NCBI GenBank assembly: GCA_016930515.1
Contig: JAFGGO010000030.1
Coordinates: 1 to 15,871 of the forward strand
DNA length: 15,871 nt
Reading direction: 5' to 3'
Origin: Promethearchaeota archaeon
Lineage (GTDB): Archaea > Asgardarchaeota > Lokiarchaeia > Sigyniarchaeales > SOKP01
The notes below the pieces were generated by a model, which saw only the letters and a list, made by a program, of their open reading frames with translations, was not told the origin of the DNA and did not search any database. The translations under genes and the position numbers were made by a program. Of the stretch, positions 270-15,871 are shown piece by piece (the stretch's first letter is position 1; each line of letters begins with the position of its first letter).

Positions 270-1136
270 TTAATCTGTTATCTTTCTTATTCGCACTATT
301 TTTTCCGAGACGGTAATAAATCCTTCCTTTTCTAATTGTGTTAGGATTTGTAAAATTTTACTCTCGTCGACATTAAGTCTTGCGGCCAGTCCCCTCTGTG
401 ATTCTCCGGAAACCGAAAGGAGGTGTTTCAGGATTTTTCCCCGCAATTGCCTGTTGGATCCCTTAAAGGGGATTTGCTTCTTGTAATGTGCGCTCTGCTT
501 ATTCAATTCCGGGTGTTTTTTTTTCAGCATGACCCCGTAATCCATGAGTGCGTAATACCATTTCCTGCTGTCTTTCTCGTCCAAAGTAGCTTCTATCAAG
601 GGAATAATTTCCTTATCTTGCACCGTCAGCTTTCTAGGAAAGAAAAAATAAAGATATACCCGTCGTATGTTCGTTTCGATGAAAATTACGGGTTTATTAA
701 ACGCAAAAGCAATTATCGACGAGGCAGTGTTGTGGCCAATATTGGGTAATTTTTTCAGCGTTTCGACCGTGCTTGGCAGCTTCCCTCCGTGATCGTTTAA
801 AATAATGCCTGCAATTTTTTTTAGAGCGATCGCTCGGCGATTGTATCCTAACCCTTGCCAGCTCTTTAGAACATTCTCTAAAGGCGCTTTCGAAAGCGAT
901 TCAAAATCAGGGAATTGGGCGGTAAATTGCAAGAATTTCTCGGCCACCCTTCCGGTCTGGGTTTGCTGGAGCATCATTTCGGAAACGACCACGTTGTAAG
1001 GCGTGATGTTGCTCCGAAAGGGAAAATTCCTACCATGCCGCTTGAAATAGGACTTGATGATCTTTTGGAAGACTTCTATGACTTGAGCACTAAGTCCTTC
1101 TTTATTGTAAAGGGCATGAAATTGCGATACGAACAT
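270..1136 (-). CDS. HhH-GPD DNA glycosylase, MutY-like catalytic domain, no Fe-S cluster, with a C-terminal winged-helix-like tail
   Basis: 288-aa ORF with ATG start and TAA stop. It carries the MutY-type motifs VSEMMLQQTQ (catalytic Glu helix), WQGLGYNRRA, the helix-hairpin-helix/GPD loop LPNIGHNTASS (no EndoIII-type Lys) and YALMDYG (catalytic Asp context). The protein has no cysteine at all, so the usual C-x6-C-x2-C-x5-C 4Fe-4S loop is absent. The last ~60 aa (RGKILKHLL...LTQLEKEGFITV) look like a wHTH rather than a NUDIX domain. Confidence 0.8.
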   Translation of the reverse strand: MFVSQFHALYNKEGLSAQVIEVFQKIIKSYFKRHGRNFPFRSNITPYNVVVSEMMLQQTQTGRVAEKFLQFTAQFPDFESLSKAPLENVLKSWQGLGYNRRAIALKKIAGIILNDHGGKLPSTVETLKKLPNIGHNTASSIIAFAFNKPVIFIETNIRRVYLYFFFPRKLTVQDKEIIPLIEATLDEKDSRKWYYALMDYGVMLKKKHPELNKQSAHYKKQIPFKGSNRQLRGKILKHLLSVSGESQRGLAARLNVDESKILQILTQLEKEGFITVSEKIVRIRKITD

Positions 1137-1249: not shown

Positions 1250-2278
1250 TTATAAAATCTTGGAGGTTGCATATTGCATATTGATCCCTCGAATAAAAAG
1301 CAACTTGGGAGGTTTTATGGGCGTTTTGTGAACCTCGCACTGATCGCGTTCTTTATAGTATTGGTCACATTCACTACAGTAAAAATTTTGCCTTGCTTGA
1401 TGTCTTAATGCTCGTGCTAATACCTCACTTGAGTTCAACAAGCTTCCAAAAGTTTCGGCGTCGATATTGGAAACAATCTCATCGAACTTGCAACTATCAC
1501 ATGTGATTGTTAGCTTTAATATCACGAACACGAGCTTGCGAGGACTTTTCCGGACGAGATCGAGCAAGAGAGATTTGCACCTCAAGTTCTGATCCCCGCA
1601 TTTACTACACGCCTCCTTGTTGGTTGGGGAGCTATCCCCGATGGAATGCCCTTGCAAGGGCTTCTTCTTAGCGTCGTCTAAGGTGTCCTCAAATATTTTT
1701 CTCATTTCAAGAATGTCATGTAATCTATCTTTTAGACATCTTCTTTCTTGATGTGTTACTGAGCGAGCGTGTAGTTCTTTATTTATTTCTTCTTCAAGGA
1801 GTCTTTTTTCTTTTGAATTAAATATAATGGTGATGGTTTTAATTCGTTGGTTCTCAGGTGCAGGTGATGAGATCAATTTCGATTGCGAATTCAATGCAAC
1901 TTCGTTTTTCACGACATTGCTCCTAATTGGGCGGCCTAAAATTTCCTCCATTAACTTCCTGAATGCATTTACGAATTCAGAGTGAATGTTAAACGCATTT
2001 CCGCTTAATTCAAGAGTCTCAACTTTCGTTAAAAGGTGTATCGAGTTTGGCAGTGAATATAAATTTTTGTCCTTTAACCACAGCCCGGTCACGTGCCTGT
2101 CTTTCGCTGTAAATCCAAAAATGGCATTCCCAGGATTTGACTCCGCTAGGATCGGAATTGACTGACCAAGCATTACTTCCAAGGCCACGAGAAATTGTAC
2201 CTCTTCGAGGACCAATTTCACTTCCTGATAGAAAGCTACTTTATCCCCAACCTTGTTTCTATCGTTGTTCGAGAACAT
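1250..2278 (-). CDS. hypothetical protein with N-terminal leucine-rich-repeat-like segment and C-terminal multi-CxxC zinc-ribbon region
   Basis: 342-aa ORF that starts 10 nt downstream of the stop of the HerA-like gene on the same strand, suggesting an operon. It has an LRR-like stretch HVTGLWLKDKNLYSLPNSIHLLTKVETLELSGNAF. The C-terminal half has Cys pairs CSKCGDQNLRC, CDSC and CSECDQYYKERDQC. I recognise no enzymatic motif. Confidence 0.5.
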   Translation of the reverse strand: MFSNNDRNKVGDKVAFYQEVKLVLEEVQFLVALEVMLGQSIPILAESNPGNAIFGFTAKDRHVTGLWLKDKNLYSLPNSIHLLTKVETLELSGNAFNIHSEFVNAFRKLMEEILGRPIRSNVVKNEVALNSQSKLISSPAPENQRIKTITIIFNSKEKRLLEEEINKELHARSVTHQERRCLKDRLHDILEMRKIFEDTLDDAKKKPLQGHSIGDSSPTNKEACSKCGDQNLRCKSLLLDLVRKSPRKLVFVILKLTITCDSCKFDEIVSNIDAETFGSLLNSSEVLARALRHQARQNFYCSECDQYYKERDQCEVHKTPIKPPKLLFIRGINMQYATSKIL

Positions 2279-2288
2279 CTTCTTCTCT

Positions 2289-5200
2289 CTAAGGTTTATT
2301 TTCGCTATTGTCTTGACTTAAAAGAATGTCTGAAAACTCTTGCTTTAAAAGCGTTGCGAGTCGTCCCGTGGTGTCCGTAGTACTTAATCCCTTAGCCCGT
2401 TCGAATAATTCGTGTAACTTATTCGTTTTTTCTAAAATCTTCGCCTCGATCTGCATGTTGAGGATTGGAATTTTCACACTGATGTCTTGATTTACCTGAT
2501 CATTACATTTCGGACAACGCGCCTTGGAAGCAGCAGACGAACGAAATACCTTGGGACAATTCGAACAGAAAACATAATTAGCGTGAAAGCCTCGAAGTCG
2601 TTCCCATAACTTGTCCGAAAAGTTTTGAACAGCAAAGCATGCTTTTTTAGAGGGAAACTTAATTTTCTCGATTGTTCCCTCTCGATTAATCGATATTTCA
2701 GAGATGATAAACGAATATTCGTTGGAGTCTTTCTGTCCACTTATCTGATAATGCAGCTGTTCGATGACTCCTTTATTGCAACTTTTATTTTCGAGTTCCT
2801 CGTCCCTAATCTCATCTTTCACGCCCCAATCTTTTGGTTTTACTAGATCCATTACGACTAAAAAAGGCTGGTCGTATTGTTCCAACTTAATGACGCACTC
2901 TCCAGGAGCAAGGCGGGTCACGTGTCCAAGATTCTCGGCGGATAAACCCAAAGAATCTCGAAAGTCTTCGATTTGATATCTTGAGGGTATCTTGTGGCAT
3001 ATCTTAAGCTCGGTGTTCGTGATCGCAACTTGATTGAGCTGTCGAGGTTTTTGCTCCGATATGATAAACCCTTCTCCGTAAGCGCGAATTTCGGCCAGAA
3101 TGTCGCTGAAATCCTCTTGCGACTTGTGTGCGATGCTATCTTTGGACCTATCTGAAATCCTCGCCGATGATAGAAGCCTGTGCGCCTCTTCTAATACCGT
3201 AATATGTCTCAAGGAGGTGGAAGGTTTATTTTGTTGTTGGTAAAGGTACAATAACCTCACGATGTAATTAAAAACTAGCGCTCTTTCTTCGTTGTTTCTG
3301 AGACTATCAAGTTCCAAGATGACATTTTTTTTTAAGATTCGATCGATGTTTGGATGATTTTTTGACGAATTAAAGATTTGTCCTCTCGTACCCTTGAGTA
3401 GCGAGCCAAATCTCGCCTCAAACGCTCCCAAGAAACCGTCCTTCGTGCGGTAGTCATAACTCGAGAATCGAATTTTCAAGACGGTATACTTGAAAAAATC
3501 TTCCAAGGTTGGCGTTCTTCCCCTCTTAATTTCGGTCCAGCCGTTTACCTGATAAATTTCAACCAGAGAGGTATAAATGACATCCCTAAAAGGGTACCAG
3601 ATGTAAAAGGTGTTCGAAATTACCTCAAGAAGCTCGTTTACCCATTGAGTATAATTCAAAAAGCGTGGAACTTCAAAAAGGTTAATCTTCAATCTATTCG
3701 TGGCTGCTCCAGCGGAATATACTTCCACGTTCTTGAAGTGATTGAGCACGTGACGATATTCTTTTTTAATGGGTTCCACGACTAGGAAGGGAATCTTTTT
3801 TTCTCGTGATTTCATCAAAATATTAAGGACGGTATTGGTCTTACCAGATCCCGTTGATCCTATGACTAAACAATGTCGGGTAAGAGAATCCAAATCCAGG
3901 TAAAAATCTTCTACCACGTCACTTCCTCGCTTAATGCGACCGATCCGAAGGGGATTTGCCATTTTATTTACCGCCATCTCTGGAAGTTCTTCGGAGAAAT
4001 CAGGGATCTTAAGAACTTTAAAATTCGAAATCGATCTTGTCGGTAAATTGATGTGATCGCCTAACCTGTGCGAGGAATAAATGGTTCGATATGGCTTAAA
4101 CTCGGAAGAGGCTTCCAAGCCCGTGCCCAAGGTCGTAACTGCCTTGAAGGACTTGGGAAACCAATTCAACGGCTCGCCAAGTTGAAATGCATCGACGGGA
4201 AACCAAAAATCGCCTTGGTTCTTAAAATGGGATTTGATGATGGCGTAGATGGTATAATAAGTGCTTTTTTTATCGGCAAAAATATAATTGAACGTGTCCC
4301 AGAGGCCGTGTGTTGCATTTTCTCTTATATATTTATTAATTAATCCGATTTTTTTGATCGCTCTGAATTTTGCGTGCCTCATCGTAAACTCTCTAGTCTT
4401 TTCCGTGTTATCTATTTCGTTGAAATAAAACTCCTCGTCTGGCGTGATTATTGCGTCTAATACATCCTTCAAGTCGGAAAGAATGACCTTGATCCGTTCC
4501 TGATTCAGGCTTTCACCTATTGTAAGAAATCCCCATTTTTGCTTGTTGAGAGCGTTGTTAATCTCGGAAAGGACACTGTTTGTAATAGTCTCCGTTGCGT
4601 GACCTGTTAAGCAACCATAAATTCCTCTATTCTCCACGAACTCAAGGATATCCTCGTGCTCTTGTTGGTTCAAGAACGATATCTTCAGGTTTGGAAAACC
4701 CGAAACCAGTACTTTCTTGAACAAATCGAACTGCTCTTGAAGCGACTTAAGAACATCTTTAGGATTGTTGCCAGAATGTAAAATTCCCAAATAGAATCGA
4801 AAACCTTTCTTGTCGTTTAGCAATATTCGAATTATCTTGCATCCGAAATAATTAAGCGCTTCGAGCATGTTCCTCATAAAAATGTGCCGTCCTTTCACGT
4901 TATCCTCGTTTTTTAAACTTAAACCGTCAATTCTTAAGAGTTTTACGTATTCGAACTTTATTCCGCTTTCTTCAGGGTTTTTTAGCTCTATCACATCATT
5001 GAAGGCATGTTTGGTAGTGAGCACGGCTTCTGCAAGCATTTTTGAATCTACGAGCGCCTCGAGCTCCTCCCGAACTGGGGCGTTGGAGTGATCCAAAGAA
5101 TTCAAAAGCAATTTCTCGTACGAGAGTTCTTTCTCACCGGGTACGGTCTCTTGGCGTTTCTTTAAGGTGTTTTCTAATGCAAAATGTATCAATTCTCCTG

Positions 5201-5582
5201 AAATGGTTAAAAAATGTAAACGAGCTCCCAGAACTTGCGATAATTTCTCTATAGTTGATTTGATCGAGTAATTATACTGATTCACGTTGAAATATAATCC
5301 TTCTTCGCAAACTGTAAGTTCCAACTCGTTTAATATTACATTGTAGAGCTCTTGAAAAAACACCTTATCGTTTAAGATCTCGATGGGGATTACAGACACC
5401 TTCGATCCTGGAAAGTAACTCTGTATTTTGTTAACGATGCCATTAATTTCGATTTTATTTATACTAACTAAGCCATGGGAAGATTCTTTTTCGTCCTTTT
5501 TCCTTCTTTTTATAATTGCATCCTTTTTAGGAAGGATGACAATATGAGAAGAGTTAGAAAGTAGAGCTGCTCGCACGGTCAA
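2289..5582 (-). CDS. HerA/FtsK-superfamily (DUF87/COG0433-like) ATPase with a large unknown N-terminal region and a C-terminal zinc ribbon
   Basis: 1097-aa ORF. Walker A is in RHCLVIGSTGSGKTNTVLNIL, followed by PFLVVEPIKKEY (HerA DPhGEY-like). Walker B is HITVLEEAHRLL. The arginine-finger region is AEIRAYGEGFIISEQKPRQLNQVAITNTELKICHKI. A CxxC-x13-CxxC zinc ribbon (CSNCPKVFRSSAASKARCPKCN) lies near the C-terminus. The first ~550 aa have no motif I recognise. The TTG start at 5582 is preceded by AGGAG with a 5-nt spacer. Confidence 0.8.
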   Translation of the reverse strand: MTVRAALLSNSSHIVILPKKDAIIKRRKKDEKESSHGLVSINKIEINGIVNKIQSYFPGSKVSVIPIEILNDKVFFQELYNVILNELELTVCEEGLYFNVNQYNYSIKSTIEKLSQVLGARLHFLTISGELIHFALENTLKKRQETVPGEKELSYEKLLLNSLDHSNAPVREELEALVDSKMLAEAVLTTKHAFNDVIELKNPEESGIKFEYVKLLRIDGLSLKNEDNVKGRHIFMRNMLEALNYFGCKIIRILLNDKKGFRFYLGILHSGNNPKDVLKSLQEQFDLFKKVLVSGFPNLKISFLNQQEHEDILEFVENRGIYGCLTGHATETITNSVLSEINNALNKQKWGFLTIGESLNQERIKVILSDLKDVLDAIITPDEEFYFNEIDNTEKTREFTMRHAKFRAIKKIGLINKYIRENATHGLWDTFNYIFADKKSTYYTIYAIIKSHFKNQGDFWFPVDAFQLGEPLNWFPKSFKAVTTLGTGLEASSEFKPYRTIYSSHRLGDHINLPTRSISNFKVLKIPDFSEELPEMAVNKMANPLRIGRIKRGSDVVEDFYLDLDSLTRHCLVIGSTGSGKTNTVLNILMKSREKKIPFLVVEPIKKEYRHVLNHFKNVEVYSAGAATNRLKINLFEVPRFLNYTQWVNELLEVISNTFYIWYPFRDVIYTSLVEIYQVNGWTEIKRGRTPTLEDFFKYTVLKIRFSSYDYRTKDGFLGAFEARFGSLLKGTRGQIFNSSKNHPNIDRILKKNVILELDSLRNNEERALVFNYIVRLLYLYQQQNKPSTSLRHITVLEEAHRLLSSARISDRSKDSIAHKSQEDFSDILAEIRAYGEGFIISEQKPRQLNQVAITNTELKICHKIPSRYQIEDFRDSLGLSAENLGHVTRLAPGECVIKLEQYDQPFLVVMDLVKPKDWGVKDEIRDEELENKSCNKGVIEQLHYQISGQKDSNEYSFIISEISINREGTIEKIKFPSKKACFAVQNFSDKLWERLRGFHANYVFCSNCPKVFRSSAASKARCPKCNDQVNQDISVKIPILNMQIEAKILEKTNKLHELFERAKGLSTTDTTGRLATLLKQEFSDILLSQDNSENKP

Positions 5583-6023: not shown

Positions 6024-7268
6024 CTATTGGTTAAACACAGCAACTAGATTAGTGAAAAAGGCTATTGAATCGCTAAAACTGCAAGACATTGAGATTGAAT
6101 CGATTTTATCTAAAATAACTTTTAAATGATTGTTTAAGTTTTGGGATTTGTTGCCAAGCCGATTAATTTTTTCGCTCGTCGTAAAGACATGTGCATAGTC
6201 ATTTCTCTCAACCGAGAGAGAATTAACTTCTCCAAACAAGCTTGATTCGTTTATACCGTGTTCATTAGTGCTGGTTGCAAATCGAAACCTCCTAAAAAGT
6301 TCGTCGGACCTTTCCCTCTGAGCGGTATCGAGTGGATCAAGATCTAATATATCCTCACATAACCAAGATATGAAACTCTCTCGAACCAATCCAAGAGATG
6401 TTGAAAAATCCATTTTTCGAGTTAAGAGCAATCTTGCTAAATTCAATTGTCTCTTCCATAATTTCTTTATTTCATCGTTCTCTCCAAATATTTCTTTTTT
6501 TATCGTCTCGAGTTCAGGAATGATGCCTTGATAAAACGAGTTGCGATAAAAATCATCGTATTCTTTAAAAATATTTTGGGGTTTTCTCGTAAAATGATCG
6601 CTGCTCAAAAAGCGGTTTAATTTTCCCAATAATTCATCGCTCGCAACTCCTGAATTAAGGAATAGCATGATTTTTTGTAGTTCTAAAACTACATTTCTTA
6701 ACGCTTTTACCTTGCTTTTTGCCCATTCAAACGCAGAAATATCTAAGTTTTCTATCAAAAGCTTGATGTGAGATATCTCGTGTTGGAGCATTACTAATTG
6801 ATCGAGTTGTACGAATTTTGAGGTAGTATTAGGACCACGAGAGATTGCGTAATAAATCTTTTCGAGAATGTTTGAAGAAACATTTTCGAAGTAATAGACA
6901 AACGAAAAAAGCAAGCTTTGAAATAATCTAAATCCAAGAGTAATATCGATGATGACGGAGGAATGATTAATATTTCCTAAAACGGTAGTTAGCTTGTTTA
7001 AAAAAAGCCATATGTCCTTTTCTTCCTTGATCTCTGAAATTTCGTATGGTACAATTTTGCATGAGGACGAAGAAGCTTCTTCTAGGATTTGTTTAACTGG
7101 TTCTCGCTGCTTGAATCTCTCAGGAGGAGGATCGGGGATCGACCAACCGTTAAAGGTTTGCTTCCCTTCGGGCGTGTCGGGATAAAAAACGATTATCTGG
7201 GATAAGCTTGTTTTCTCGACTTCGTCTAAGTACTTTACGAGAGCATATGTAGAACACCAATGATTCAC
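6024..7268 (-). CDS. csx1: Csx1/Csm6-family CARF-HEPN ribonuclease; the ORF as tracked starts at GTG and lacks the first CARF strand, and may be disrupted
   Basis: The HEPN R-x4-H motif ERNDYAH (RNDYAH encoded at 6189-6206) sits in the C-terminal domain. The CARF loop motif is VIIDITLGFR. Length and architecture fit Csx1. The N-terminal strand KVLITVLGNS is encoded in frame upstream of the tracked start (see the next feature). Confidence 0.8.
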   Translation of the reverse strand: MNHWCSTYALVKYLDEVEKTSLSQIIVFYPDTPEGKQTFNGWSIPDPPPERFKQREPVKQILEEASSSSCKIVPYEISEIKEEKDIWLFLNKLTTVLGNINHSSVIIDITLGFRLFQSLLFSFVYYFENVSSNILEKIYYAISRGPNTTSKFVQLDQLVMLQHEISHIKLLIENLDISAFEWAKSKVKALRNVVLELQKIMLFLNSGVASDELLGKLNRFLSSDHFTRKPQNIFKEYDDFYRNSFYQGIIPELETIKKEIFGENDEIKKLWKRQLNLARLLLTRKMDFSTSLGLVRESFISWLCEDILDLDPLDTAQRERSDELFRRFRFATSTNEHGINESSLFGEVNSLSVERNDYAHVFTTSEKINRLGNKSQNLNNHLKVILDKIDSISMSCSFSDSIAFFTNLVAVFNQ

Positions 7269-7537: not shown

Positions 7538-8176
7538 TTAAAGCCATAATACCTTCTTTCCACTGAAATACATTCGCTTCAAACCGTATTTATCGCTCAA
7601 TTCTCGAAGGGCAAGAGAAACGGGCTTCGTTCCTCCCGTTAGTTCGCAGATGATTTCAAACTCGTTGATATTTTCTATTATGAGGTCTTCAAGGTTTGAA
7701 AGCACTTCTGGATAATTTTCTCGCAAGATTTCTTGAAAATTCACGGCTTTAACTTCCGTTTTCACGGATTTAAACTTCCCTTTATCGAACTTCTTAAAGT
7801 CCTTGCTCAATTCAGGACTTGTGAGAAGGAGGTACTTCTTTGGCAGGATGCTTATATCTTCTAACGCAGCGAGCACGGCAGTAAAGAGATCCAGTTGGCC
7901 AAGACCTCCGATCAAGCATATTGGTACGATTTCCTGGAATAAAGACCTGAGAGGTTGAATACTCGTCTCGTTTATCTTGTAATATCCTCTTTTTTTAATT
8001 CTCTTGAGCAGTCCAGCGTCAACTAGTTTTTTCAGGTGAAAATCGGGTCGTGAAGTATCGTTGCGGACGTGATCCTTTATTTGCTCGTAATAAAGCGCCT
8101 TGCGTTCTGATAAGAAATAGAACATGATTTTCTTTCGATTAGGATTTTCCAATGCTTCGTTTAAATTACCTGACAC
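7538..8176 (-). CDS. wHTH-CARF protein, a putative cOA-responsive transcription regulator with Csa3-like logic but reversed domain order
   Basis: 212 aa. The N-terminus is an ArsR-type winged helix (NPNRKKIMFYFLSERKALYYEQIKDHV...HLKKLVDAGLLKRIKKRGYYKINE). The C-terminus is a CARF-like Rossmann unit with ICLIGGLG (strand 1 and Gly loop) and the ligand-loop motif EIICELTGGTKPVSLAL. GTG start. Confidence 0.7.
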   Translation of the reverse strand: MSGNLNEALENPNRKKIMFYFLSERKALYYEQIKDHVRNDTSRPDFHLKKLVDAGLLKRIKKRGYYKINETSIQPLRSLFQEIVPICLIGGLGQLDLFTAVLAALEDISILPKKYLLLTSPELSKDFKKFDKGKFKSVKTEVKAVNFQEILRENYPEVLSNLEDLIIENINEFEIICELTGGTKPVSLALRELSDKYGLKRMYFSGKKVLWL

Positions 8177-8444: not shown

Positions 8445-8873
8445 ATGCTAGATAATGATGTTTTTTCTGAACTGAAGGATAAAAATAACACGTGTATGTT
8501 AGGTGGTCTGGGGGATGTTGAACTTTTTGTTGATTTATTGGATGCTCTCGAGCGAGATTACGGAATCGTTCCTAAAAAATATGTGCTTATTACTAGCCCT
8601 GAAATACACGAAAAATTTAAAAAAGGAGATCTAAATCTTGATAAGGTACGCAGCGAAATTTACGAGTTTGACTTTCAAACAGTTTTAAGAGAAGATATCC
8701 AGAAACTCAAGATCGTTTTTAAGGATATTATTGATAAAATTGAGAAAAACCACGAGATCATCTGCGACATCACGGGAGGGACTAAACCCGTATCTATTGC
8801 TTTAATGTCTATTGCAACTGAAAAAAAATTGCTTAAAATTTACTTTAGCGGACGGCATTTTATAAAGATATAG
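8445..8873 (+). CDS. stand-alone minimal CARF-domain protein, paralog of the CARF half of the 7538-8176 product
   Basis: 142 aa. It aligns along its whole length with residues ~85-212 of the neighbouring wHTH-CARF protein. Shared blocks are GGLG, PKKY.L.TSPE, FKK, LRE, EIIC.(I/L)TGGTKPVS.AL and YFSG, about 35-45 percent identity by eye. It has no DNA-binding or effector domain. An alternative start at the internal Met (MLGGLG) is possible. Confidence 0.65.
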   Translation: MLDNDVFSELKDKNNTCMLGGLGDVELFVDLLDALERDYGIVPKKYVLITSPEIHEKFKKGDLNLDKVRSEIYEFDFQTVLREDIQKLKIVFKDIIDKIEKNHEIICDITGGTKPVSIALMSIATEKKLLKIYFSGRHFIKI

Positions 8874-9095: not shown

Positions 9096-11201
9096 ATGAT
9101 AACTTGGATAACTACGGTCGGATGGAGCCCGTTTGCCGTCATTAATCCCATCTGGGCGTATTGTAAGGATAAAGGGCGATTTCCCTCACGAATAAAGCTA
9201 TTGCACACCTCGCATATTAAGATTTTGGAAAACTTAGATATCTGCAAGAAAAATATTTTTAAAATCTTAAAATCTTATTCGAACGATCGGAATTTTCAAC
9301 CGCAAATCGATTCCTGCCCAGTGAAAAGCGAAGATATTGAAATATATACCGAAGCTCTCAAGGATGTTGTCAATTCGGTCATCAAGTTAGGAGACTCGGA
9401 ATTGATCATTCTCGACATGACGCCTGGAAGGAAATACATGTCGGCTAAAGTCATGCATGTGGGCGAGCAGGTAAATTCAATAGAAAATCCTGTTCAAGTT
9501 TTTTACCTCGCCTTGGAAGACTTGACTTACATGAATTCGACATATCCGACAATACCCTTATTTACTCAGGGCCTCAACAACATCTTGGAAGACGCCGATT
9601 TCCAGATGCAAACGCCTCCAGATCCCCAGGTACAACTGAACGATCTGATCAATCAAGTACTTAACACTAATTCGTTAAGAATGATAAACAATCCCGAAAA
9701 ACAACTGGAAATATTCGTACTTTCTGCTCTCGCTCTTGGATACGATACAATCACGAGGTTAAGCAGGTTTGCCAGGGAAAATCACCTAAATTACAATAGA
9801 AACGATATTAATAACACGGTAAGAAGGCTCGGAATCATGGAAGGATATCTTTACGAGAGCGTGCGAATTTCAAACGACACAACAGTAGACATCATCATCG
9901 TTACTCCTGAAGGTATCGAATATTTAAGAGAGATCCTTGAAGAACTTCTCACCGATCATCCTCCAGAAGCCCTTGTTAACGTGAATCGTCAGCCTCACAC
10001 GAGTCTTGACGAATTGAGTCTGCAAAACATCTACATGCAAGCCGAAAATAAAAATAAGAAATACATCGATTTAGAAGTAGACAAGCTCGTCGTTTTTCTG
10101 AACGAACTTTACTCTCATAACCTTAGAACCTTTCACGTGGTCGATTGTTATTATGGTATCAACTTGTTAAGGGTTGATCTCGAGCTAGGCAAGGACGAAA
10201 TCAATCTCCGATTTGAAAATTCCCTTAGATCCCTCCCGGATAAAAAAGGGCAAAAAAAATGTCTTGAAGATCTGCGTAGGAATGTTTCAAACATTCCGGG
10301 CATCGTGTTCAAGGAAATACCCTATAAAAACCAATTTCTGGACGCGATACGAAAATCTGGAGTGTTTTTTAACGAGACCTGCATGGAACAATTCAAGCAG
10401 AAACTCGATCAAATCGTCAATTCAAACCCGATTAGAGGCGATAGGTATAAAGTGTTTAGTTTCGACACGTGTACCTTTTCGAACCAGACTTTCTCTCATC
10501 TCTACAAATATTACACGAGCCACCCGATTTACGGTAATAAAATCAACCGATTAGACTTTTTGGTTTCAAAAGGAGTTATTGACGAATTATCCGATTTTGA
10601 AAACAAGTATGGAAATAAAGAATTTCACGATTTTCTCGACTACTTGACCAAGATCGCCTCTTTCCCAAAGATCGTGGAACAATTTAAAAATCAAAGCACG
10701 CTTCAAGCGAGATTAACCAAGTTAGGGCGATGCGACTACTTGAAGACGAAATCGCTTGCAAACGTGAGAGAGATAGAGATTGGTGGTGAAGAGTCCCTCC
10801 ACATGGACAGTCGCATCATTAGTGGCCTGCAAACCGAAGTTCAACGATTAAATAATATTGATTTATACTTGTGCTCGCACGACGATAACTTTTACGGTCG
10901 CGCAACAGGATTTGCGGGCGTTTCACCTCACTTATTTCTATACAAAAACGTACTTCACAAGAAAGAACAAAATTTCTCGATTAAAACAAGCTGGGACACT
11001 TTTTCAAGAATCCTCTATTATTTAGCAGTTACCTTCGGAGCTATCATACTAAACGTTGACAGTAAAGACAAGTTCGTGTTATTTGGAACTTGGCCTGGAC
11101 ATAAAACCCAAGATTGGCAACGGGAACGCACGCGGATCTATTCGGAGAATTCGATCCTGAAAAACATGGTTCGAGATATGAAAATTATCAATTCAGACTA
11201 A
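9096..11201 (+). CDS. CARF-wHTH-(unknown)-PIN-like multidomain protein, a candidate cOA-regulated nuclease
   Basis: 701 aa. Residues 1-~165 carry a Csm6/NE0113-type CARF signature (ITTVGWSPFAVINPIWAY and ILDMTPGRKYMS). Residues ~200-285 look like a MarR/Csa3-type wHTH (EIFVLSALALGYDTITRLSRFA...NNTVRRLGIMEGYLYE). Residues ~450-612 have acidic residues in PIN order and context: VFSFD(457)TCTF, GVIDE(497)LSDF, SLHMD(571)SRIISGL and LYLCSHDD(596/597)NFYG. Residues ~300-450 and ~615-701 are unassigned. Confidence 0.7.
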   Translation: MITWITTVGWSPFAVINPIWAYCKDKGRFPSRIKLLHTSHIKILENLDICKKNIFKILKSYSNDRNFQPQIDSCPVKSEDIEIYTEALKDVVNSVIKLGDSELIILDMTPGRKYMSAKVMHVGEQVNSIENPVQVFYLALEDLTYMNSTYPTIPLFTQGLNNILEDADFQMQTPPDPQVQLNDLINQVLNTNSLRMINNPEKQLEIFVLSALALGYDTITRLSRFARENHLNYNRNDINNTVRRLGIMEGYLYESVRISNDTTVDIIIVTPEGIEYLREILEELLTDHPPEALVNVNRQPHTSLDELSLQNIYMQAENKNKKYIDLEVDKLVVFLNELYSHNLRTFHVVDCYYGINLLRVDLELGKDEINLRFENSLRSLPDKKGQKKCLEDLRRNVSNIPGIVFKEIPYKNQFLDAIRKSGVFFNETCMEQFKQKLDQIVNSNPIRGDRYKVFSFDTCTFSNQTFSHLYKYYTSHPIYGNKINRLDFLVSKGVIDELSDFENKYGNKEFHDFLDYLTKIASFPKIVEQFKNQSTLQARLTKLGRCDYLKTKSLANVREIEIGGEESLHMDSRIISGLQTEVQRLNNIDLYLCSHDDNFYGRATGFAGVSPHLFLYKNVLHKKEQNFSIKTSWDTFSRILYYLAVTFGAIILNVDSKDKFVLFGTWPGHKTQDWQRERTRIYSENSILKNMVRDMKIINSD

Positions 11202-11700: not shown

Positions 11701-12660
11701 TCAGGATCCGATGAATTTCGTTCTAATCTCTTGGAAATCAAACGGTCTCGTCAGACTGTAAACGCTTCCCGCCCTATAAAAGAAACTTGCTCGTGGAAAA
11801 TGTCCGCACAGTCCGTGCAGTAACACGGTATATATAATCCCAATAGAAGACAAACCCGCAGGGAGGACGGCGTACTTGCCTATTTTTAAATGCCTGAGGA
11901 CTCCTTCTAAATTAATCACATCGTCAATGGTCTTAACGCAAAAATCTTTAACCGTTTCGTGGTAGGTTAGCGGATTGGTAAGATCTAAACTTGGAGTAGC
12001 TCTTGTTACTTTTTTATACCCTTTCCACTGGCTTATCTCGTGAAGTGCCTCGTCGGACAACTCGTGGCGTGCCAGATTAAGAAAGACGAGGTCCTCTTCA
12101 ATGCTCGGCGGTTGATTCACGGGTGTTTGTACATCTCGATAATGGTTTCGAATGGATTGAAGCGTGATTCGAGGTGTTAAATCGTATCCGTTGTCTTTTT
12201 CGTAAAAGAACGACATTATCGGAAAGTGACCCGTCATTCCGTGAAGCATGGTCGTGAACATTATCGCAGTGGAGTTCAATCCTGGCGGAACGATGACGCA
12301 TTTCTGAGTCGCCAAGATTTCGACGAGAGATTCTCGATTTACGAGCCTATCGAGGATTTCAGCGCAATAATCTCCAACCACTTGCATGTAGGAGGCGGGA
12401 TTCGTCAAGTCCAGGGTTGCAGGTTCGATCTCCACGATTTCGATTTTTCCCCATTGAGATATCGTTTTCAGCGCGTCTTCGTTAAATTTACGCCCAGATA
12501 GGTTTACAACGATGACGTCGCACTCCTCGTATTTTTTCTTCTTTTTCCGGTTAAGTAGCTTTTTTCGAGCGGTAATAATTGATTTTACCAAACTTTCAAT
12601 CAACCTAAAAGTAAAGTAATTGTTTATCATGTTTTCCACGGTTTCCTTTTTTATCTTCAT
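11701..12660 (-). CDS. csx15: tandem-duplicated Csx15-like protein (two Csx15 modules fused), CRISPR type III accessory
   Basis: 319 aa. Two homologous modules span residues ~47-176 (nt 12133-12522) and ~189-316 (nt 11713-12096). Both share NL(S/A), DEAL..ISQW, LDLTNP, P.GL(N/S)S, LHG..GHFP..SFFY and LT.P...Q.IR. The pattern matches my recollection of single-domain Csx15 (LNFSHP..., PSLN..., ELHGRMGYFP). A ~45-aa N-terminal helix and Lys-rich linker precede module 1. Confidence 0.6.
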   Translation of the reverse strand: MKIKKETVENMINNYFTFRLIESLVKSIITARKKLLNRKKKKKYEECDVIVVNLSGRKFNEDALKTISQWGKIEIVEIEPATLDLTNPASYMQVVGDYCAEILDRLVNRESLVEILATQKCVIVPPGLNSTAIMFTTMLHGMTGHFPIMSFFYEKDNGYDLTPRITLQSIRNHYRDVQTPVNQPPSIEEDLVFLNLARHELSDEALHEISQWKGYKKVTRATPSLDLTNPLTYHETVKDFCVKTIDDVINLEGVLRHLKIGKYAVLPAGLSSIGIIYTVLLHGLCGHFPRASFFYRAGSVYSLTRPFDFQEIRTKFIGS

Positions 12661-12853: not shown

Positions 12854-13894
12854 ATGGAATTCGTCGTCAGGGAGTTTCAAGAAGAAATATCAAGAGCCTC
12901 GAAGAATAGGAACATGAAGAAGACAAATAAACTCATGAAAGAGCTCGTTCGATCCCCTGAGGCCAAGCTCCTTGCCATCTACAAGATTACCCAAAAAAAC
13001 AAGGGCAAGCATACAGCAGGAAACGACGGCAAGAAATACGAAACGACCGCAGCAAGAATGGACTTGTTTAAAAGGCGTTTTGATTATAGGTGGTACAGGT
13101 TTAATAAAATTCTCGTGAGAGAGATTCCAAAAAAAAACAAAGATAGGAATCGAAAGAAATTTGACGGTAATAACGTCGTAAAAAAGCGCAAGTTAGGAAT
13201 CATGACCCTGAAGGATAGGGTGATGACCAAGATCGTTAGTTTTGCGCTCGTGGCAAAATGGGAACCTTTTCTCGAGTCGAACGTGATGGGCTATCGCGAG
13301 GGAAAGAGTGTTCAAGATTGCATCCATTTGGCCTGCAAGGAGCTGACAAAGGGCAATAAAATCGTATTAGACGCCGATATCAAGAACTTTTTCGAAAACA
13401 TCAATCACGAGGCAGTTTTAAAACACCTGCAGGTGTTTCGAAGGTTTGTCAAGCGCTTGTTAAAAATAAAAGTTGCAACGCCACACAAGAGAGCTCGTAA
13501 AAATCGCAGGGGTATTGTCCAAGGGAGCCCTCTCAGTCCCGTGCTCTCGAACATCGCTTTACACGGCATGCAAGATCTGTTTGACACGCAATTAATCGGA
13601 AATAAACTCGTTAAAGCCGGATCGAAGGTTTCAGTGATCAGATATGCCGACGACTTCGTGGTGTTCGCACCTTCGAGACACGCCATTGAGTCCTGGGTCT
13701 TGCCTAAGATAAAGGATTTCCTGGAACATCGCGGTCTTTCTCTCAACATAGAAAAGACGAAAATCGTCACCAAGGAAGAAGGGTTCACGTTTTTAGGGTA
13801 CACGATCAAGCAAGAAGGCAAGGACCTGTTAGTGTTCCCGGAGAAAAATCCGAAAGCGCGACGGGCAAAAGAAATAATACACCTTGCACTATAG
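12854..13894 (+). CDS. group-II-intron-like reverse transcriptase, CRISPR adaptation-associated, not fused to Cas1, no thumb/X domain
   Basis: 346 aa with RT motifs in order: KGKHTAGNDG, RKLGIMTLKDRVMTKIV, VLDADIKNFFENINHE, RGIVQGSPLSPVLSNIALHGM, IRYADDFVVF, LNIEKTKIV and FTFLGY. The protein stops ~27 aa after FLGY. Homology to group II RT N-termini (W..INW) continues in frame upstream of the ATG to about 12824. Confidence 0.9.
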   Translation: MEFVVREFQEEISRASKNRNMKKTNKLMKELVRSPEAKLLAIYKITQKNKGKHTAGNDGKKYETTAARMDLFKRRFDYRWYRFNKILVREIPKKNKDRNRKKFDGNNVVKKRKLGIMTLKDRVMTKIVSFALVAKWEPFLESNVMGYREGKSVQDCIHLACKELTKGNKIVLDADIKNFFENINHEAVLKHLQVFRRFVKRLLKIKVATPHKRARKNRRGIVQGSPLSPVLSNIALHGMQDLFDTQLIGNKLVKAGSKVSVIRYADDFVVFAPSRHAIESWVLPKIKDFLEHRGLSLNIEKTKIVTKEEGFTFLGYTIKQEGKDLLVFPEKNPKARRAKEIIHLAL

Positions 13895-13938
13895 CGATTT
13901 CAATTGATTAACAAGAGAGTGGAGCGCGAGAAATAACC

Positions 13939-14217
13939 GTGTACATCGTGGCCTACGACATTACTGATAACAAGCGATTGAGAGAGGTCGCAAACACTTG
14001 CCTGCAATACCTCTCGCGGGTTCAAAAGTCCGTGTTCGAGGGAGATTTGACGCCGAGCCAATTGCATTCGCTAAAAAAAGAATTGAAGTCGATCATGGAC
14101 GATAAAACGGATTCCATCTTGTTTTATTTTTTAAAAAATTCCTCAATAAAAAAAAGAATCGTGCTTGGAAAGAGGAAAAACGACCCGTTTTTCATAAAAG
14201 AAGGGGACGAATCGTAA
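13939..14217 (+). CDS. cas2: CRISPR-associated endoribonuclease Cas2
   Basis: 92 aa with a GTG start. It has the canonical Cas2 N-terminus MYIVAYDITDNKRLREV with catalytic Asp, then RVQKSVFEGDLT and DSILFYFL. Confidence 0.9.
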   Translation: MYIVAYDITDNKRLREVANTCLQYLSRVQKSVFEGDLTPSQLHSLKKELKSIMDDKTDSILFYFLKNSSIKKRIVLGKRKNDPFFIKEGDES

Positions 14218-14294
14218 AAGCGTAAAGGATTAGAAATTAAGTGACATGTGAACAAACAAAAAAATTTGAATTCGAAGGGAGAGAGAGATAAAAG

Positions 14295-15305
14295 ATGCAA
14301 AAAACGCTTTACATAACGAGCTCGAAGTTTGAATTGAAAAAGGAAAACGACACGATCAAATACGAGCGAGCAGATCCCGATAACGCGGGAAAAAACATCA
14401 CGCAGGTAATTCCCGTGATGCAACTAGCGTCTATCGAAACCTATGGGAACGTGAAGATCAGCACGCCCCTGTTAAAGCTCTGCAACGAGCTGGGAATACC
14501 CTGCTTTTTTAACACTTATCGAGGGCATCCCATAGGGAAATTCGTGCCCGAAAGACCGAAACCAAGCATCGTGCGGCTCAAGCAGTTCGAAACCCATCTT
14601 GACGAGGAGAGAAAGCTCCACATTGCCAAGGCGATCGTTAGAAAAGCCTGCGAAGAACGGATAAAACTCGTAAATAAATACGACGAGAAGGGAAGCTTGA
14701 AAAAAATTACAGGAGAAATTTCTTCTTTTTTGAAAAAGACTGCGAGCGCCAAAACCACGAACCAACTTCGAGGATTTGAGGGAAACGCCATGAAGGCGTT
14801 TTTCGAGGCTTTTTCAAAAATTCTCAAGCACTTGTCCTTTAACGGCAGGTCCACGCAACCGCCCAAGGACGAGGCGAACGCCCTAATTAGCTTCGGGAAT
14901 GTGATGCTGTACAACAAGGTGCGAGCCGTTCTTTATCGAACCTCGCTCGATCCGTTAGTGGGATTCTTGCACGAACCTCACGAGAATCGAAACTCTCTTG
15001 CGCTTGATATGGCCGAGATCTTCCGTCCAATAACCGTGGATGCCACGATCTTAATGCTCGATCGAAAAAGAAATATTACTTCAGAACATTTTAAGCACGA
15101 TAAAATAAAATGCTTATTAAATCCTGCGGGTAAGCACATATGGATAGAGACATTCAGAAATAAATTAGAATCGTCTTTCGATTACAAACCGCTTAAAAGA
15201 AAGGTTTCTATACAAGAACAAATCAAGATTGAATGCTTTAATCTCATTAAATATTTCAATCGGGAAAAAAGTAATTACGCACCAATTGAATTTAATACCT
15301 TGTAA
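14295..15305 (+). CDS. cas1: CRISPR-associated integrase Cas1
   Basis: 336 aa. Cas1 motifs are LRGFEGNAMKAFF (catalytic Glu), PPKDEANALISFGNVMLY and DPLVGFLHEPHENRNSLALDMAEIFRP (catalytic His and Asp/Glu). A GGGAGAGAGAG purine tract lies upstream of the ATG. Confidence 0.95.
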   Translation: MQKTLYITSSKFELKKENDTIKYERADPDNAGKNITQVIPVMQLASIETYGNVKISTPLLKLCNELGIPCFFNTYRGHPIGKFVPERPKPSIVRLKQFETHLDEERKLHIAKAIVRKACEERIKLVNKYDEKGSLKKITGEISSFLKKTASAKTTNQLRGFEGNAMKAFFEAFSKILKHLSFNGRSTQPPKDEANALISFGNVMLYNKVRAVLYRTSLDPLVGFLHEPHENRNSLALDMAEIFRPITVDATILMLDRKRNITSEHFKHDKIKCLLNPAGKHIWIETFRNKLESSFDYKPLKRKVSIQEQIKIECFNLIKYFNREKSNYAPIEFNTL

Positions 15306-15319
15306 AAATAGAGGATTCT

Positions 15320-15871
15320 TTGAAAATGTTCACGCACGATTACATCGAACCCCATCAAGTCAACTCCTTCGTCTATTGTCGCCGCAAGTGGTATTATCAA
15401 AATCGATTGAAATTAAGACTTGAACGCGATAACTTAATTTTAGGACAAAAAATTCACCAAGAGCACAAGTTAACTCGATATAAATATAAGGAACTATACA
15501 TGACTTCGGAACAGTTAAAATTGAAAGGAATGTGCGATTACGTCATCGAAGATGAGGGAGTTCTCGTTCCCTTGGAACTTAAAATCGGAAAGTCTAACAA
15601 TGGCAGGCCTTTCGAAAACGATATCGCTCAACTGGTTTGTTACATTCTCTTGTTAGAAGATTACCTTAAAAGTCCCCTGACCCACGGATATCTCCTCTAT
15701 CTTGGATCGCGACAAAAATTAAAAATTAAATGCGATAAAAAAGCAAGATCCGAATTATTCACGATAATTAAATCGATTCGAGAACAAGTTCGCTTGAATA
15801 AAATACCTAAGCTCCCTCAAACCAACGATAGATGCAAGAATTGTTCATTTTTTGACTATTGCTGGTATTAA
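15320..15871 (+). CDS. cas4: CRISPR-associated RecB-like exonuclease Cas4 (Fe-S cluster type)
   Basis: Cys in VYCRRKWYY plus the C-terminal CKNCSFFDYC gives the four-Cys cluster. The nuclease motifs are CDYV...PLELKIGK (D...ExK) and QLVCYILLL (QxxxY). The tracked start is TTG at 15320. ATG at 15326 (MFTHDY) is an equally plausible start, downstream of AGAGGA. The TAA stop occupies the last 3 nt of the window. Confidence 0.9.
   Translation: MKMFTHDYIEPHQVNSFVYCRRKWYYQNRLKLRLERDNLILGQKIHQEHKLTRYKYKELYMTSEQLKLKGMCDYVIEDEGVLVPLELKIGKSNNGRPFENDIAQLVCYILLLEDYLKSPLTHGYLLYLGSRQKLKIKCDKKARSELFTIIKSIREQVRLNKIPKLPQTNDRCKNCSFFDYCWY

Follow-up and report, generated by a model that had tools for sequence, protein, structure and literature searches.

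A CARF sensor joined through a winged helix to a PIN-type nuclease module in a Lokiarchaeon: a long variant of the catalogued CARF_m1/Crf6 family

The CARF_m1 family was reportedly described by Makarova et al. in 2020. Accessory genes of the CARF+PIN kind were already listed by Shah et al. (2018; PMC6546367), and the 2025 CRISPR classification (Makarova et al.) carries CARF+PIN entries as Crf6, Crf10 and Crf11. In that classification Crf6/CARF_m1 is given as CARF+PIN, with the PIN domain listed as an RNase and with the roles of sensor, effector and ring nuclease (s, e, r). We found in the literature no biochemical characterisation of any Crf6 member and no experiment behind the RNase label of the table. 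SiRe_0806 from Sulfolobus islandicus, deposited as "PIN domain-containing protein", has been crystallised in the apo form (PDB 9JXW) and with the cyclic oligoadenylate (cOA) cyclic tetra-adenylate, cA4 (9JXX); the entries were released in July 2025, and no paper was found on 9JXW/SiRe_0806 or on a PIN domain together with islandicus and cA4. Here we analyse a stretch of 15,871 nucleotides (nt) from a Promethearchaeota archaeon (Lokiarchaeia; contig JAFGGO010000030.1), referred to as the window, and in it the gene at 9096..11201 (+). This open reading frame (ORF) starts with ATG, and its product of 701 amino acids (aa), hereafter the Loki protein, is a signal-sensing CARF domain joined via a winged helix to a PIN-type nuclease module. 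Judged from its profile matches, it is a long Asgard variant of the catalogued CARF_m1/Crf6 family, CRISPR-linked and bearing a winged helix-turn-helix (wHTH) domain. With a probability of roughly 0.55 we consider it an accessory effector of a CRISPR-Cas system in this Lokiarchaeon, probably of type III, acting as a cOA-gated, metal-dependent PIN RNase.

At first the protein looks like an orphan, since direct scans with its sequence are nearly empty. The whole 701-aa protein gave no meaningful Pfam match, PIN included, even at E<=10 (JmjN appeared by chance), a sequence search of the PDB returned nothing, and NCBIfam returned just a sub-threshold match to Crn1 over residues 5-119. A word-indexed search of 5.8 billion proteins gave P0002 as the single relative, with 49% identity. 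An identical protein is on deposit as "hypothetical protein" from a Candidatus Lokiarchaeota metagenome-assembled genome (MAG). The placement is given by the PADLOC models: the protein matches PDLC01973 CARF_m1--CARF_PIN at 5.8e-43 and PDLC01068 CARF_PIN at 9.2e-24. In the former, positions 1-146 are matched by residues 1-161 of the N half at 4e-27, and positions 243-457 of 465 by residues 407-685 of the C half at 1.3e-16, while positions 146-243 are unmatched and about 245 residues of the Loki protein stand there instead. Since both halves match this curated model, the family is one already catalogued.

A canonical member, P0052 (496 aa), matches the CARF_m1--CARF_PIN model end to end at 4.6e-189, and the length of 701 aa departs from the contiguous CARF-to-PIN layout of about 465-500 aa that the model and P0052 have in common. 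The two proteins belong to the same CARF clade (35% identity), with a common D-M-T-P-G-R-K-Y/F-M-S loop, and have the same PIN module, including its C-terminal "G-x-W-x-G-K...DW" domain; the Loki protein differs in about 120 extra residues, the wHTH, between CARF and PIN, and in a larger N-subdomain. Two further proteins from MAGs, P0002 and P0003, have kept the CARF-wHTH-PIN fusion, which is therefore no assembly artefact. An earlier reading of this DNA from its letters alone (the sequence-only reading) had presented an unusual architecture with a PIN output that was predicted in silico but not characterised. Its architecture stands; its interest was set too high, with Crf6, Crf10 and Crf11 catalogued and a related CARF-PIN protein crystallised with cA4. 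What is new is the wHTH inserted between sensor and nuclease, the relatives in which sensor and PIN module are two abutting genes, and an Asgard subgroup of CARF_m1/Crf6 in clear CRISPR context.

The CARF sensor comprises residues 1-170 (9096..9605, +), as delimited by AlphaFold2 (AF2), Foldseek, profile and PADLOC results. The AF2 model of residues 1-299 reached a predicted local distance difference test score (pLDDT) of 93.1, and its CARF part is Rossmann-like with six strands, in the order b1a1b2a2b3a3b4a4b5b6. When the sensor half was compared with the PDB by Foldseek, the best 50 matches were all CARF proteins. These include Crn1 Sso2081 (1.9e-6) and Csa3 with cA4, 6wxq (3.2e-6 over 285 columns, covering CARF and wHTH); further matches are TtCsm6, Card1, Cad1, Cam1, Can2, SiRe_0806 (4.6e-5) and 8y75, the "CARF-HTH domain of Csx1-Crn2". 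Crn1 (Sso2081, Sis0455) is the best match of the CARF domain in both sequence profile, where the family profile reaches it at 4e-8, and fold. Relatives of the Loki protein match the Pfam CARF families Cas_APE2256, Cas_NE0113, CARF_Card1 and Csa3_N. The ligand loops, G9-W-S11-P-F-A14-V after beta1 and D107-M-T109-P-G-R112-K113-Y-M-S116 after beta4, sit where the sequence-only reading had quoted them, and the N-terminal CARF domain that it proposed is confirmed by the model and by the Foldseek matches. Both loops are the most conserved parts of the family: D107, T109 and N17 occur in every one of 45 homologs, K113 in 44 and S11 in 38, and the set G9/S11/A14 and D107/T109/G111/R112/K113 is kept in 38-45. 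They align with "GTSPGGV" and "DITGGRKSMS" of Sso2081, so that S11, R112 and K113 fall on the catalytic S11, R105 and K106 of Crn1.

Cleavage of cA4 by Sis0455 requires R105 and K106, with S11 in contact with a phosphate (PMC9638899), and as S11, R112 and K113 are kept, ring-nuclease activity of the Loki protein is plausible. The argument is a weak one, since TsCard1 has the Ser/Lys pair as well but leaves cA4 uncleaved (PMC9638899), which counts against this part of the proposed function. A stronger version would see in the protein above all a cOA sink or ring nuclease; its CARF domain would degrade cOA and silence the nearby Csx1, and the PIN module would have a regulatory role or act on linear products. 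That the closest solved CARF domains are Crn1 ring nucleases, that the three residues are conserved and that Crf6 is flagged "r" would agree with it. We consider it very unlikely, as the Crn1 equivalog NF040581 gives 13.7 bits against a cut-off of 125 and a strongly conserved module of 380 aa whose metal-binding tetrad is invariant can hardly be dispensable. Crn1 itself is a CARF-only enzyme of about 180 aa, whereas the Loki protein is multi-domain.

The wHTH follows at residues 172-291 (9609..9968, +; AF2, Foldseek and a hidden Markov model, HMM), with helices at 177-248, a beta-hairpin wing at 252-269 and a further helix at 271-287. The Csa3-like winged helix of the sequence-only reading is thereby recovered: the N-terminal 300 aa have the same CARF-wHTH layout as Csa3, and 6wxq superposes over the 285 columns given above. 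Csa3 stops after the wHTH, whereas the Loki protein runs on for about 400 aa with the nuclease module, and neither TIGR01884 (NCBIfam Csa3) nor Pfam Csa3_N matches it. Matches of a clean wHTH HMM were confined to long fusions and stand-alone CARF-wHTH proteins, with none among the canonical short members; the wHTH of the ortholog in locus L006 gave a weak MarR-type (HpaR) match. Most members of the family are short CARF-PIN fusions or partners that consist of CARF only, and these lack the domain, which is therefore not core to the mechanism. The alignment shows that the stand-alone CARF-wHTH orthologs have not kept R243 and R244, basic residues in the putative recognition helix.

These observations bear on a possible Csa3-like role, in which the CARF-wHTH part would be a cOA-responsive transcription factor acting on cas or adaptation genes, with a secondary role left to the PIN module. 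The superposition on Csa3-cA4 agrees with such a role, as do the existence of stand-alone CARF-wHTH orthologs and the position of long-fusion genes near a reverse transcriptase (RT) or Cas2-Cas1 in all three loci read (window, L001 and L003). However, the lack of the wHTH in most members, the unconserved R243 and R244 and the miss by the NCBIfam Csa3 model make it improbable, and an HTH between CARF and effector domain is found in Csx1 too (8y75). In Csx1 the HTH is a structural linker. This role is the "effector-regulator hybrid" that the sequence-only reading had offered as an option, and it is not favoured, with most family members lacking the wHTH.

Residues 321-700, as the alignment and the model indicate, are a compact PIN module of about 380 aa with an intact D-E-D-D metal site. 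The AF2 model of residues 300-701, built on a 55-sequence alignment, is one compact body with a pLDDT of 92.1 and a predicted TM-score (pTM) of 0.93. It begins with an N-subdomain at residues 321-445 (10056..10430, +), a beta-alpha-beta-beta-beta unit followed by four helices, which is supported by AF2 and by the stand-alone modules described below. The PIN-like core at residues 447-613 (10434..10934, +) is supported by the tetrad, by matches to PIN_4 and PIN_12 in relatives, by Foldseek and by PADLOC. It is followed by an alpha/beta domain at residues 622-700 (10959..11195, +), recognised by its conservation, high pLDDT and identity with P0052. The tetrad codons, all on the forward strand, are D457 at 10464-10466, E497 at 10584-10586, D571 at 10806-10808 and D596 at 10881-10883. 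In the model each of these acids stands at a strand end or a helix start of the beta-alpha-beta core. D457, D571 and D596 are present in all 55 homologs and E497 in 54; as these homologs have just 19-41% identity to the Loki protein, the tetrad is not there by chance. R539 (55/55) and S/T594 (54/55) are conserved to the same degree. Among these relatives, PIN_4 of Pfam matches 17 (best 1.4e-5) and PIN_12 matches 12 (best 1.6e-7).

The C-terminal domain has Y641, G648, G664, W666 and W674 as conserved residues in the homolog alignment, and 23% identity to the C-terminus of P0052. At residues 669-670 (nt 11100-11105) the Lys of the "G-x-W-x-G-K" motif, present in 53 of 55 homologs, is His in the Loki protein; in this protein and in P0002 a Lys stands one position after the motif site, probably through a one-residue register shift. 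The N-subdomain is N-terminal also in most stand-alone PIN-module proteins, and these match the C-terminal part of the CARF_m1--CARF_PIN model. Because the same unit together with the PIN core occurs as a separate gene, residues 321-445 and 622-700 are not linkers. The N-subdomain was at one time a candidate for a second wHTH; this signal arose from an HMM with misaligned rows and vanished with the clean wHTH HMM.

The only significant Foldseek matches of the PIN module in the PDB are four chains of SiRe_0806 (3.8e-5, probability 1.0, TM-score 0.41). SiRe_0806 was compared by fragments rebuilt from a HMMER alignment, and these match PADLOC CARF_m3--CARF_PIN (PDLC01982; Crf10-11) at 1e-67, a model to which the Loki protein gives no match at E<=1e-3. 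The two proteins have in common a "D-I-T-P-G-R-K-Y-M" loop and the order of the D/E/D/D motif, and by Foldseek SiRe_0806 is a neighbour in both the PIN module and the CARF domain, CARF_m3 being the sister family. In sequence the kinship of the PIN part is marginal, with an hhalign probability of 51% for the fragments. SiRe_0806 has 429 aa and no full wHTH, against the 701 aa with wHTH of the Loki protein. A library of viral folds gave nothing significant, the weak top matches including FEN-type 5'-3' exonucleases and a LabA/NYN protein.

The sequence-only reading had named observations that could overturn it, and the corresponding searches were run, with none of these observations made: the PIN module gave a significant fold match to SiRe_0806, the acids are conserved and the N-terminal domain models as CARF. 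Its four PIN acids are thus upheld by the 54-55 of 55 homologs, and its PIN-like C-terminal region by the tetrad, the PIN_4/PIN_12 matches of relatives, the curated CARF_PIN match and the SiRe_0806 fold. What had been counted as about 230 aa of unassigned sequence has to be corrected, residues 321-445 and 622-700 being integral to the conserved module.

The family was found by an exhaustive two-sequence profile search of 1.84 billion cluster representatives, which gave 163 matches. The two halves were modelled apart, because a combined MAFFT alignment put distant PIN-module N-termini onto the CARF region. The matches form four classes. The smallest proteins consist of the CARF domain alone (about 160 aa), others of CARF and wHTH (about 285-305 aa), and a third class is the C-terminal PIN module by itself (about 340-395 aa). 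The fourth comprises about 17 fusions, some of them short (487-585 aa), in which CARF runs straight into the C-module, and some long (663-735 aa), which like the Loki protein also carry the wHTH. Hosts of the named members are Promethearchaeota (Loki), Freyarchaeota and one Fimbriimonadales bacterium.

Some relatives have sensor and nuclease in one chain, and in others the two parts come from abutting genes. In all seven stand-alone PIN-module loci with readable upstream DNA (L002 and L004-L009), a gene of the same CARF family stands in the same direction right next to the PIN-module gene, abutting or overlapping it. The overlap is 4 nt in L007 and 20 nt in L008, and in L004-L006 the genes abut or share one base. 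Some of the CARF partners have a wHTH and some do not, those in L007-L009 being CARF-only. The stand-alone PIN modules have the complete tetrad and no sensor of their own.

Such pairs recall a toxin-antitoxin system, the likeness resting on the gene order of VapBC. In this alternative the CARF or CARF-wHTH protein would inhibit a constitutively active PIN nuclease and might repress its own promoter, cOA would free the nuclease, and the Loki protein would be the single-chain form. A small upstream gene, possibly DNA-binding, that overlaps the PIN gene (L004-L008) resembles VapBC, and the sensorless PIN modules with their whole tetrad fit as well. Many pairs, however, have a CARF-only partner without DNA-binding domain (L007-L009), and characterised CARF effectors are ligand-activated and not de-repressed; we regard the alternative as possible, with low confidence. 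A broader and equally tentative proposal is that of a cOA-responsive two-component switch, in which a separate CARF sensor would control a stand-alone PIN toxin in trans, by relieved inhibition or by ligand-dependent assembly. The wHTH forms would autoregulate, the Loki protein would be a toxin-antitoxin-regulator in a single chain, and the Mokosh-like neighbours of some relatives, described below, would represent cOA feeding a second defence system.

Several relatives are found in CRISPR loci. The gene of P0003 lies between Cas6 and Cas2-Cas1 (L003), that of P0002 adjoins an RT and a 915-aa Cas_APE2256 protein, and the split pair of L007 stands beside a Cmr2/Cas10-RAMP-Cmr5 operon. The P0052 gene directly follows a complete type III-A csm operon (L011:1899-9491, L012:162-7753) with an HD-bearing Cas10, Csm2 and three RAMPs. 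This slot after the csm operon is where Csm6, a cOA-activated effector, usually sits. The 2025 CRISPR classification describes Crf6/CARF_m1 as typically not CRISPR-associated, which speaks against a CRISPR effector; the position of P0052 disputes that description for this archaeal branch, and the subgroup of the Loki protein, which is Asgard-archaeal and clearly CRISPR-linked, differs from the family so described.

In L006:9119-14542, L009:7738-12263 and L014:2-5119, which are unrelated metagenomic or MAG loci, a conserved trio stands beside the CARF/PIN-module genes. It consists of a superfamily 1 (SF1) Upf1/IGHMBP2-like helicase (PADLOC MkoA, 1.6e-82), a protein of about 350-380 aa without annotation and a PLD-family nuclease (DrmC/MkoB-like). 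No cas genes were present within the flanks read of these three loci, which look like a Mokosh-type system tied to a CARF sensor. The neighbours of the long fusion P0021 (717 aa; L013:2699-4711) include a MazE-type antitoxin paired with a PIN toxin and a gene for RNase III, and this locus is not obviously CRISPR-associated.

The trio loci and the family's annotation as typically outside CRISPR loci would also suit a CRISPR-independent stress or defence nuclease that responds to another ligand, such as RNA ends or another nucleotide, and is merely located in a defence island. There is a precedent in the divergent CARF domain of RtcR, which reportedly senses damaged tRNAs and not cOA. Yet the window, L003, L007, L011 and L012 are unmistakably CRISPR loci and the ligand-loop residues match those of the cA4-binding Crn1, and we hold this explanation to be unlikely.

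For the cOA-gated PIN RNase, which we prefer, the following course of events is proposed. The CARF domains would mediate dimerisation, Cas10 would make cOA on recognition of target RNA, and the Loki protein would bind it. The likeliest ligand is cA4, because the nearest solved CARF domains (Crn1, Csa3, TtCsm6 and SiRe_0806) bind cA4. A ligand-driven conformational change would be relayed via the wHTH linker, for which the HTH of Csx1, placed between CARF and HEPN, offers a parallel. Once switched on, the PIN module would cleave RNA non-specifically in dependence on Mg2+/Mn2+, leading to growth arrest. The CARF domain may slowly cleave its own ligand via S11, R112 and K113 and in this way time the response. 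The order of CARF sensor, helical or HTH linker and RNase is the same as in Csx1/Csm6; the output of those enzymes is the metal-independent HEPN domain, whereas the predicted output here is a metal-dependent PIN domain. The guess of the sequence-only reading, a cOA-gated PIN nuclease, gains support from the predicted folds, the tetrad, the family match, the coupling of sensor and nuclease by fusion or as adjoining genes, and the CRISPR neighbourhood.

A number of results weigh on the other side. SiRe_0806 aside, the best 50 Foldseek matches of the PIN module in the PDB are generic Rossmann-like folds, and a classical VapC-type PIN is absent from them. The majority consensus of the module gave no PIN match in Pfam, its profile found no PIN chain and no meaningful match among the PDB sequences, and the Loki protein itself matches no Pfam PIN model. 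ST0035, a CARF-PIN protein, is reported to have had weak affinity for cA4, with no RNase activity induced (PMC6546367), and this is the only published biochemical test of a CARF-PIN protein that we found in the literature. In the split relatives the sensor and the nuclease are separate chains, so that simple intramolecular allostery does not explain everything in these. Finally, there is no Cas10 inside the window, and for this reason the source and the kind of the ligand are inferred only.

The remaining genes of the window give the Loki protein a CRISPR neighbourhood. On its downstream side, 12854..15871 (+) encodes a group-II-intron-like RT (RVT_1, 2.3e-35), Cas2 (TIGR01573, 1.3e-16), Cas1 (1.3e-76) and Cas4 (1.2e-22), the last being cut by the window end. 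The RT stands alone and is not fused to Cas1; homolog locus L001 likewise has an RT nearby. Between the Loki gene and the RT lies a 319-aa protein with a Csx15 domain (11701..12660, -; NCBIfam CAS_Csx15, 2.8e-16; PADLOC Csx15). The domain occupies residues ~110-175, and the protein, with no domain assigned outside this part, is more than twice as long as the 125-position Csx15 model; the Csx15 family is of the cA4-binding or ring-nuclease type. Scans of the window for CRISPR arrays, tRNAs and Rfam families found none.

On the upstream side, a 414-aa Csx1-type CARF+HEPN effector is encoded at 6024..7268 (-), with a PADLOC Csx1/Csm6 match of 1e-19, a weak NCBIfam match to cas_TM1812 and no Pfam match, so that two CARF nucleases, one of HEPN and one of PIN type, stand side by side in the locus. 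It is followed by a 212-aa HTH(ArsR-like)-CARF protein (7538..8176, -; Pfam HTH_5 and CARF_Card1) and by a small CARF-only protein of 142 aa (8445..8873, +; Pfam CARF_Card1, 4e-8, and Csa3_N). These two are paralogs, both carrying a "TGGTKPVS" loop, and between them, a short way before the Loki gene, lies a divergent intergenic region. In the first the ArsR-type HTH is N-terminal, the reverse of the Csa3 order. Both differ in CARF subtype from the Loki protein, and the second matches its CARF HMM weakly. Further upstream, the region 1250-5582 (-) holds a HerA/CedD-like ATPase of 1097 aa, matched by PADLOC HerA models (one of them "Type III coevolved") and mad8 and with no domain assigned to its first ~500 residues, and after it a 342-aa ORF without match in Pfam, NCBIfam or PADLOC. 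The gene at 270-1136 (-) combines an HhH-GPD base-excision glycosylase domain with a C-terminal MarR/TrmB-type winged helix, an uncommon pairing.

The gain from this analysis is incremental and does not change the concept; the sequence-only reading overrated the novelty, given that the family is catalogued and that a crystal structure with cA4 already exists for the sister family. CARF-PIN proteins are in every recent catalogue of type III signalling, while no published cOA-switched PIN output was found and the ST0035 test was negative. The lineage of the Loki protein offers a fused protein modelled with high confidence, natural split pairs for control in trans, and D457, D571, S11 and K113 as targets for mutation. 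It is a reasonable candidate for showing biochemically, and for the first time, a PIN nuclease under cOA control, and if a ligand-gated, metal-dependent PIN RNase is indeed what it is, it would be an alternative to HEPN enzymes in type III-based diagnostics. For the organisms themselves, the window means that Asgard archaea carry several cOA-type effectors in one locus, namely Csx1, the CARF-PIN protein, the small CARF proteins and the Csx15-domain protein.

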